Source: Eledone cirrhosa (Eukaryota). From it: a stretch of 64,000 nucleotides of DNA. Shown here one piece after another: positions 4,081-5,352 of this stretch (positions are counted from its first letter, which is position 1; each line of letters starts with the position of its first letter). Location of the stretch: NCBI GenBank assembly GCA_964016885.1, contig OZ024743.1:335358001-335422000 (forward strand). The letters run 5' to 3'. The notes under the pieces are model-generated. The model did not search any database and was not told where the DNA came from. It saw only the letters and a program-made list of their open reading frames with translations. Made by a program: the position numbers and the translations under genes.

Positions 4081-5352
4081 AAACCGAAAAAATTAAACGA
4101 AATTTCATTTTCCACTCTTAGTACGGCTGTTACTTAAATATAAGTATGTACACGTACATACATATATGTATACAGACGTACAGTAGTATGTATATATATA
4201 TACATACATGCACACATATATATATGTACGTATGGATACACCGAACATTTATTATAATGCTCGGTGTGTTTGTAAACAAACATCCCGTATTAAGCCGTAG
4301 GGTCTAGCAACCATCGTTGCACGTTTGTTCAACACTGACAAAGGACCGCTGTACAAGTTTCAAGCTTATTAGCTATCGTCAGCAACGTATACCTTCCTGC
4401 CAGATTGTTGAACGTATATACTTATCTTATGCATATTAACAGCTGAGTAGCCCAATTTGCATATCGAGTGGGTTAATCGCCCGGGTACACCGAAAACGAT
4501 AAACGGAAAAAATGAAACGAAATTTCATTTCACAATCTTAGTACGGCTGTTACTTAAATATAAGTATGTACACGTACATACATATATGTATACAGACATA
4601 CAGTAGTATGTATATACATATACATACATGCACACATGCACACATGCACACATGCACACACACACACACATATATATATATATATATATATATATATATA
4701 TATATATATATATATATATATATATATATATATATATATATATATATATATATTTATATATTTATAAATGGAATAGAATGAAACGAAAATTCATTTCTCA
4801 CTCTTAGTACGGCAGTTACTTAAAAGTAAGTATCTATGTATACGTACATACATATATGTATACAGACGTACAATAGTATGTATATATATACATACATGCA
4901 CACATATATATATGCACGTATCGGTTTACCGAACATCTATTATAATGCTCGGTATGTTTGTTTTTAAACAAACAAACGGCCCGAATTACGCCGTACAGTG
5001 TTTAGGCAACCACGTCACCTTTTTGTTCAACACTGACACAAGAACGATGTACTAGTTTCAAGCTTATTAGCTATCGTCAGCATCGTATAACTTTTTGCAA
5101 GATGGTTGAACGTCTGAAAGTATAAAATAACCTTATGCATATTAACGGTGGAGCAGCCTAATTTGCATATCGAGTGAGTTTAGTCGGCTGCGTAATTCGG
5201 GTTGTTTGTTTGTTTACAAACAAACAAACCATGCATTATAATAAATGTTCGGTAAACCGATACGTGCATATATATATGTGTGCATGTATGTATATATATA
5301 CATACTACTGTACGTCTGTATACATATATGTATGTACGTATACATACATACT
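4081..5352 (-). repeat. Family J hammerhead-bearing repeat, ~420-bp tandem units plus an inverted partial copy
   Basis: Unit start AAAC(C/G)GAAAAAAT.AAACGAAATTTCATTT recurs at 4081 and 4501 (period 420) and again at ~4780. Hammerheads at 4347-4387 and 5045-5085. Confidence 0.85.
5045..5085 (-). ncRNA. Minimal type I hammerhead, family J
   Basis: cgatg-CTGACGA-tagct-aata-agctt-GAAA-ctag-TA-catcg; perfect 5-bp stem I. Copies at 4347-4387(-), 6574-6613(-, decayed), 50512-50552(-), 50892-50932(+), 61159-61199(+). Confidence 0.85.

Follow-up and report, generated by a model that had tools for sequence, protein, structure and literature searches.

A non-coding hammerhead repeat of Eledone cirrhosa carries a two-start PLE insertion footprint and is probably copied from an RNA circle

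We analyzed a stretch of 64,000 nucleotides from Eledone cirrhosa (assembly GCA_964016885.1, contig OZ024743.1, positions 335,358,001 to 335,422,000 of the forward strand; hereafter the window), which contains close to its start a repeat of about 420 nt with a hammerhead ribozyme motif, here called family J. The locus raises the question of how a short RNA of this kind returns to the genome, namely which enzyme inserts it and whether that enzyme copies a circular or a linear template. An initial annotation had proposed an undescribed retrozyme mobilised by the reverse transcriptase (RT) of a Penelope-like element (PLE). Our analysis confirms a non-coding tandem hammerhead repeat of the retrozyme kind, which fixed ends and paired arms mark as very likely moved by PLEs; a circular template is probable. 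Comparisons with published work refer to the accessible portions of the cited papers.

Five J loci were found in the window, as initially counted, in addition to a sixth, old remnant (Table 1). What had been taken for one head-to-tail array at 4081–5352 is in fact two separate insertions, one of subfamily g1 and one of g2 with an inverted arm, sitting in one (TA)n tract. The 420-bp period described there as exact holds for the offset between 4081 and 4501, but the copy at 4501 is only a 161-nt partial unit with 90% identity; the period of about 425 bp reported for 50249 and 50675 was measured as 426. The lack of an ORF was likewise borne out, with the longest ATG ORF reaching 47–75 aa on four circular consensus units.

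Table 1 Family J features in the window (positions in nt from the first letter of the window).
Feature	Position	Strand	Comment
Insertion 1, subfamily g1	4079–4661	-	Single arm, 1.3 units; 97% to g1 consensus over 4079–4637; 3' end at site A next to (TA)n; 5' end grades into microsatellite past 4637
"Tail" of insertion 1, 59 nt	4079–4137	-	Extends from site B (about 4138) to site A (4079)
Type I hammerhead, 41 nt	4347–4387	-	Intact core; cut predicted between 4352 and 4351; palindromic stem III lost (CUUG for CUAG)
(TA)n tract separating insertions 1 and 2	4670–4763		About 95 nt
Insertion 2 (g2), left arm	4764–5188	-	Nearly one unit, 94%; ends at site A
Type I hammerhead, 41 nt	5045–5085	-	Core intact, stem I perfect, stem III palindromic (ACUAGU)
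Insertion 2, inverted right arm	5190–5355	+	98%; ends at site B, without tail
Two-armed insertion, g3	6309–6770		Minus arm 6309–6644 to site A, plus arm 6641–6770 to site B; hammerhead core broken
Old decayed J-related remnant	39856–40170	+	nhmmer E 6e-14
Two-armed insertion, g1	50247–51118		Minus arm 50247–50867 (1.5 units, site A); plus arm 50866–51118 stops short of B and adjoins a truncated endonuclease frame of a PLE; cores of both hammerheads broken
Single arm, g2	61032–61415	+	Ends at site B; 5' side adjoins an oppositely oriented PLE frame; closing pair of stem I mutated

Next, we estimated the extent of the family in the 3.0-Gb genome. Sixty evenly spaced 10-kb stretches (600 kb) contained 10 J loci, all of which fell within the 400 kb taken from the four largest contigs, and extrapolation gives about 50,000 loci (Poisson 24,000–92,000), or about 40,000 from those four contigs alone; J makes up about 1% of the sampled bases. 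Family J has at least four subfamilies, with resolved units of 420, 446, 427 and 471 nt and older relatives beyond. Copies diverge by 2.3–3.5% from their own consensus and lean young, since most were chosen as best matches. According to base counts, the GC content is about 40% outside a TA-rich hairpin, and none of 210 mapped J loci shows an LTR arrangement. Besides dispersed copies, long arrays occur on contig C28 of the genome (G000:C28, about 109.96–110.07 Mb, with matches spanning about 105 kb) and on C1 (about 96.99–97.04 Mb), with 94–96% identity to consensus and many intact hammerheads, and three more loci are filled by at least 9 units. Together with segmental repeats, these arrays show some amplification at the DNA level, and they could be sources of uncut tandem transcripts. 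J-like DNA is also present under a second organism label (contig sets of unrecorded kind, with 6813, 79, 12 and 0 contigs).

Several hammerhead-bearing sequences lie outside the four subfamilies. More distant relatives of J were seen at L044:7604-7970, L048:4948-6332, L083:4050-4316, L009:2972-3254 and L179:2452-2904, the first three of which carry different hammerhead stems; together these relatives show a wider superfamily. A separate 310-nt tandem family with the stem III palindrome CGCG occupies L054:281-3381 (11 ribozymes) and L057:8630-9683 (5 ribozymes, two-armed). In the window itself, type I hammerheads unrelated to J were located at 11436, 34988, 37277, 37534, 42504, 54145, 54376 and 55297, each 50–190 nt from (TA)n.

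The J hammerhead consists of a 5-bp stem I, CUGACGA, a U.U plus 4-bp stem II, and GAAAC-UA-GUA, with ACUAGU forming the palindrome of stem III. The expected 41-nt motif in every unit is real in both hammerheads of Table 1, but core and stem I are both kept in only two of the six window hammerheads. A descriptor scan (stem I and stem II of at least 4 bp) gave 0 matches in 50 local shuffles of the window sequence, and scanning 664 kb gave 73 matches, about one per 9 kb, compared with 0–1 in 5 shuffles. In an Rfam scan, nothing in the window reached the gathering score (0 matches); the ribozyme was therefore called from its core and stems as read. Across the family, the core is intact in 146 of 183 covered copies and the palindrome is present in 135 of these 146, with core conservation above background in g1 and g2 and not in g3. 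Two consecutive intact hammerheads, the arrangement that Li et al. use to call an element "active", occur in 13 of 222 arms and also in arrays. No J arm of the window contains such a pair, and hence none could release a monomer by itself.

The RNA of the unit is predicted to fold far better than shuffled sequence, with z scores of -6.5 for the window unit and -6.7 to -11.4 for the circular consensuses (30 shuffles each), values that are inflated by the TA-rich hairpin; the hammerhead strand folds better than its complement. Stem I shows a two-sided change between subfamilies, and adopting the hammerhead fold costs 1.4–2.5 kcal/mol. Isolated 61-nt hammerhead stretches gave no folding signal (z -0.35 to 0.97). 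For amphibian retrozymes, hammerheads whose stem III is weak and palindromic in this manner are reported to cut as dimers (PMC7229834), and J hammerheads are predicted to self-cut, probably in the same dimeric way.

We further looked into the ends of the insertions, which together with the inverted second arms give the strongest signal and do not feature in the initial annotation. In 136 mapped loci, the 206 outer 3' ends concentrate at two sites, A (98 ends) and B (70 ends), with 38 elsewhere; A and B are 54–62 nt apart and follow the predicted cut downstream at a distance of at least 214–253 nt, which places the 3' ends of J away from the ribozyme site. A (TA)n flank accompanies 88/98 A ends and 61/70 B ends, compared with 24/66 free 5' ends, and this (TA)n context masks target-site duplications. 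Two outward-pointing arms are present in 70/136 loci. One arm ends at A and the other at B in 42 of 45 scorable two-armed loci (25/70 were not scorable) and, in a separately fetched second set, in 26 of 27 (11/38 not scorable), which amounts to 68/72 against 50% expected (p 2e-16). The arms of a locus mostly meet with a few bases of overlap, and both belong to one subfamily in 66 of the 70. Variant sharing per 100 nt is 0.66 between laps and 0.69 between arms, compared with 0.11 between loci; arm-to-arm sharing is modest in g1, the best-sampled subfamily (0.27 versus 0.10, with pairs that are not independent), and gene conversion could add to it. The common subfamily and the shared variants of both arms imply that, at least at site B, reverse transcription starts internally, on an RNA extending as far as A.

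Two other origins of the second arm were considered and rejected. A self-primed fold-back does not agree with arm lengths that vary independently and with B arms that exceed the copyable length of the A arm in about half of the A+B loci, while L1-type twin priming blocked at the internal primer does not fit with most A arms continuing past B. J thus shows the features of PLE-type insertions: partial tandems, an inverted 5' copy and a tail at one end only. A one-ended tail, inverted 5' copies and (TA)n targeting are described for PLEs, the last of these for Hydra PLEs (Craig et al. 2021, PMC8557442), and in a purified PLE two internal RT starts delimit the tail, both target strands are cut and extended, and a dimer is predicted (Frangieh et al. 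2024, PMC11167929). Based on this footprint, we consider mobilisation of J by PLEs very likely.

Subsequently, we looked for a candidate helper among the coding PLEs. Those in the window carry the motifs DKT, CxCX5C and CxxC..E..N..CxH, and PMC8557442 lists DKT, CxCX5C, and CxxC and CxH around E and N as Hydra PLE motifs. Pfam returned no more than a faint match to GIY-YIG (E 0.045), so the clade calls rest on motifs. Searches with two coding-PLE families returned 51,657 and 61,607 first-look candidates, and among these are near-identical copies with open frames of 781–784 aa. Their copies stop in (TA)n and have their own pairs of fixed end sites, with spacings of about 79 and 115 nt, and no sequence common to J and coding PLEs was found in the two families sampled. 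The (TA)n target and the two-end geometry make a Hydra-type PLE the likely helper.

Several PLE copies deserve separate mention. A Hydra-type coding PLE on the plus strand of the window at 30638–34868 (RT 31895–33043, EN 33044–33640) has an inverted arm at 30638–31552; one outer end carries a tail of about 79 nt that the other lacks, which is the A/B geometry also seen in J, and a pattern scan of its 3' region detected no canonical hammerhead. Five-copy head-to-tail tandems of coding PLEs with a period of about 3.53–3.54 kb are located at G000:C1:437198641-437213154 and C1:91474422-91488980, where several copies keep open frames of 784–786 aa. A decayed PLE of another clade, with a DKG motif, lies on the minus strand of the window at 26516–28623. 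Besides that, the frame at 7901–8314 presumably resembles the N-terminus of a mariner-type transposase.

As a next step, we asked which form of the RNA serves as template. Reading through at least one cut site was seen in 160 of 221 arms, and through two or more in 27. The number of 5' ends at the cut is 9 versus 4.8 expected (p 0.06), or, in the less biased set without 30 ascertained loci, 5 versus 4.2 over 143 passes. Most arms thus pass the cut and no accumulation of 5' ends is seen at it, which excludes linear monomers cut at this site as the main template and leaves a circle or an uncut tandem transcript. A stop of cDNAs at the cut, hinted at by 5 early cases, was unsupported after hazard analysis, which showed a steady drop-off round the unit of about one per 235 nt on average. 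All 101 unit junctions are in register without added bases, and template jumping at site A was discarded on account of these seamless junctions, within a search that detects only junctions with 30–75 nt between anchors. Around site A, 5' ends show a broad two-fold excess (28 versus 13.6, in a window picked after looking), which could represent a transcript 5' end.

The variants of multi-copy loci offer another view of the template. A>G changes are read as A-to-I editing. On the sense strand, variants common to all copies of a locus show A>G:T>C ratios of 17:3 in the first set and 20:6 in the second, compared with 67:60 and 109:114 for private variants (p 0.007 in each set). Such an excess in the shared class is as expected if one edited RNA unit is read repeatedly; its counts are not independent, as one site recurs in 21 loci and inflates them. 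Restricted to locus-specific shared variants, A>G accounts for 6/12 in the first set and 3/29 in the second (p 0.48) and was not replicated. This test left out 12 large-array loci, g4 and five loci resembling other subfamilies, and duplicate or overlapping loci were merged or removed.

Altogether, these observations lead us to view J as very likely a non-autonomous passenger of PLEs that is probably copied from a unit-length RNA circle. In the cycle we propose, the minority of loci with at least two intact hammerheads would be transcribed, the hammerheads would cut, with the palindromic stem III probably pairing them into dimers, and the monomer would be closed by a host ligase. Both strands of a (TA)n target would then be nicked by a Hydra-type PLE protein, likely dimeric, which would start reverse transcription inside the J RNA, at site A on one strand and at site B on the other. 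Each RT would continue beyond the ribozyme site and around the unit until it falls off, on average after about 235 nt, and the two cDNA ends would join by short microhomology. In its strictest form, with one PLE RT dimer copying a single closed 420-nt ribozyme RNA round the circle from two starts about 59 nt apart, one per strand, the proposal seems to us evenly poised between right and wrong.

Accepting mobilisation by PLEs, we lean towards the circular template, for which the steady drop-off, the seamless junctions, the variants common to laps and arms and the A>G excess in the shared class speak, and its main competitor keeps the same enzymes and the same two starts. There, genomic multimers would give rise to a linear tandem transcript that serves as template without being cut, possibly with homologous switching between templates, and the hammerhead would be idle, regulatory or needed for expression only; we regard both parts as possible but clearly less probable. 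The initial argument that a unit-plus-partial copy implies a circle does not hold by itself, as partial tandems are normal in all PLEs according to PMC8557442 and uncut RNA is used by one purified PLE. In that system insertion persists when the hammerhead is mutated, uncut RNA serves as the predominant substrate in vitro and RNA-seq reads ending at the cut are absent (PMC11167929, in the portions available). The existence of large J arrays, the 3.5-kb head-to-tail tandems formed by coding PLEs of this genome and the broad excess of 5' ends near A also favor a linear template, and the missing pile-up of 5' ends at the cut fits it equally well. Against it stands the drop-off after about 235 nt, by which multimers must be regenerated or come from few arrays, yet dispersed multi-lap copies exist in each of the four subfamilies. 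Similarly, edits on a multimer should be private to one unit, but the A>G excess is found in the class shared by all copies and not among private variants (176:174 pooled).

Two further explanations dispense with J as an RNA passenger of its own. J copies might be merely 5'-truncated pLTRs of a coding PLE, which would account for an architecture identical to that of truncated PLE insertions (PMC8557442, PMC3846280) and for the two window loci that adjoin PLE frames. However, arms exceeding one unit always enter another unit: none of the 101 junctions enters coding sequence, 205 sequences contain no PLE ORF joined in sense on the 5' side, and J sequence is absent from 59 coding-PLE 3' regions of two families up to the ends of those PLEs. 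Same-strand upstream ORF matches, five at four loci in the 205 sequences, are 253–1129 nt away; of the two cases read, the one in the window is split off by the inverted arm, and in M_C11 (TA)n and the 3' region belonging to the PLE lie in between, the other two loci being L008 and L244. Matches of EN51051 (tblastn) inside J arms were an artefact of a frame that ran into J, and the search was repeated with a trimmed query. J as the constant 3' end of a coding PLE is therefore largely refuted and very improbable. Equally improbable is a satellite or another element multiplied at the DNA level, whether by unequal crossing-over, by DNA rolling circle or by cut-and-paste, whose hammerhead is there by chance: large arrays and segmental repeats speak for it, but the combination of fixed 3' ends and scattered 5' truncations, the A+B rule, the strand-specific A>G excess and the conserved ribozyme fold point to an RNA intermediate, and the excess of hammerhead matches over shuffles argues against chance.

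By the sequence-level definition of a metazoan non-LTR retrozyme (a hammerhead per unit, no coding capacity, GC below 50% and self-paired RNA), J is another member of an element class that is already known. Like J, the published metazoan families (Cervera and de la Pena 2020, PMC7229834; Li, Clavereau and Pollet 2026, 10.64898/2026.07.22.740005) consist of short, AT-rich tandem units that encode no protein and hold one type I hammerhead each. Their RNA is strongly self-paired, thousands of dispersed monomers and short multimers occur besides few long arrays, and the families co-occur with PLEs; with axolotl ribozymes J shares the weak palindromic stem III and the U.U at the base of stem II. 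In the accessible parts of these papers, cleavage and circles are shown and PLE mobilisation is only proposed, from co-occurrence and pLTR similarity, whereas for J it is the PLE footprint that was measured, cleavage and circles being predictions. Two fixed 3' ends, a tail and inverted second arms are features of J that the same portions do not describe for retrozymes. While 24 of 57 Xenopus families are homologous to PLE ends, J has no homology to the PLE ends sampled. Among the titles and abstract openings listed by literature searches, none describes family J or two-armed retrozyme insertions, although subscription papers, Repbase/Dfam and supplements may hold such a description.

Hydra-clade PLEs and Poseidon PAc, as far as described in the available text of PMC8557442, PMC11167929 and PMC3846280, resemble J in partial tandems, the inverted 5' copy, the one-end tail, (TA)n targeting, a hammerhead upstream of the 3' end and two start sites. 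They differ in having an ORF and a tail of 30–40 nt instead of 54–62 nt, and short TA microhomology to the target distinguishes the ends of J. Site use is nearly exclusive per arm in J, whereas the start sites of PAc show no strand difference in vitro (PMC11167929). An ORF with RT plus GIY-YIG, as an autonomous EN+ PLE would have, was not found joined to a J unit. J thus fails as an autonomous PLE, yet inserts like one.

For animal retrozymes, the return to the genome by a PLE RT acting on a circle is proposed and not shown in the available text of PMC7229834 and 10.64898/2026.07.22.740005. J bears the PLE-specific two-start signature with a near-strict rule of one site per strand, which the in vitro study of a PLE (PMC11167929) did not observe. 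This signature and the young intact PLEs in the same genome make the retrozyme cycle and the priming geometry of PLEs directly testable. If the strictest form of the proposed cycle is true, J and an intact Hydra PLE protein would be a two-component system ready for testing, and the genome would preserve tens of thousands of events in which a viroid-sized RNA was retrotransposed by rolling-circle, double-primed copying.
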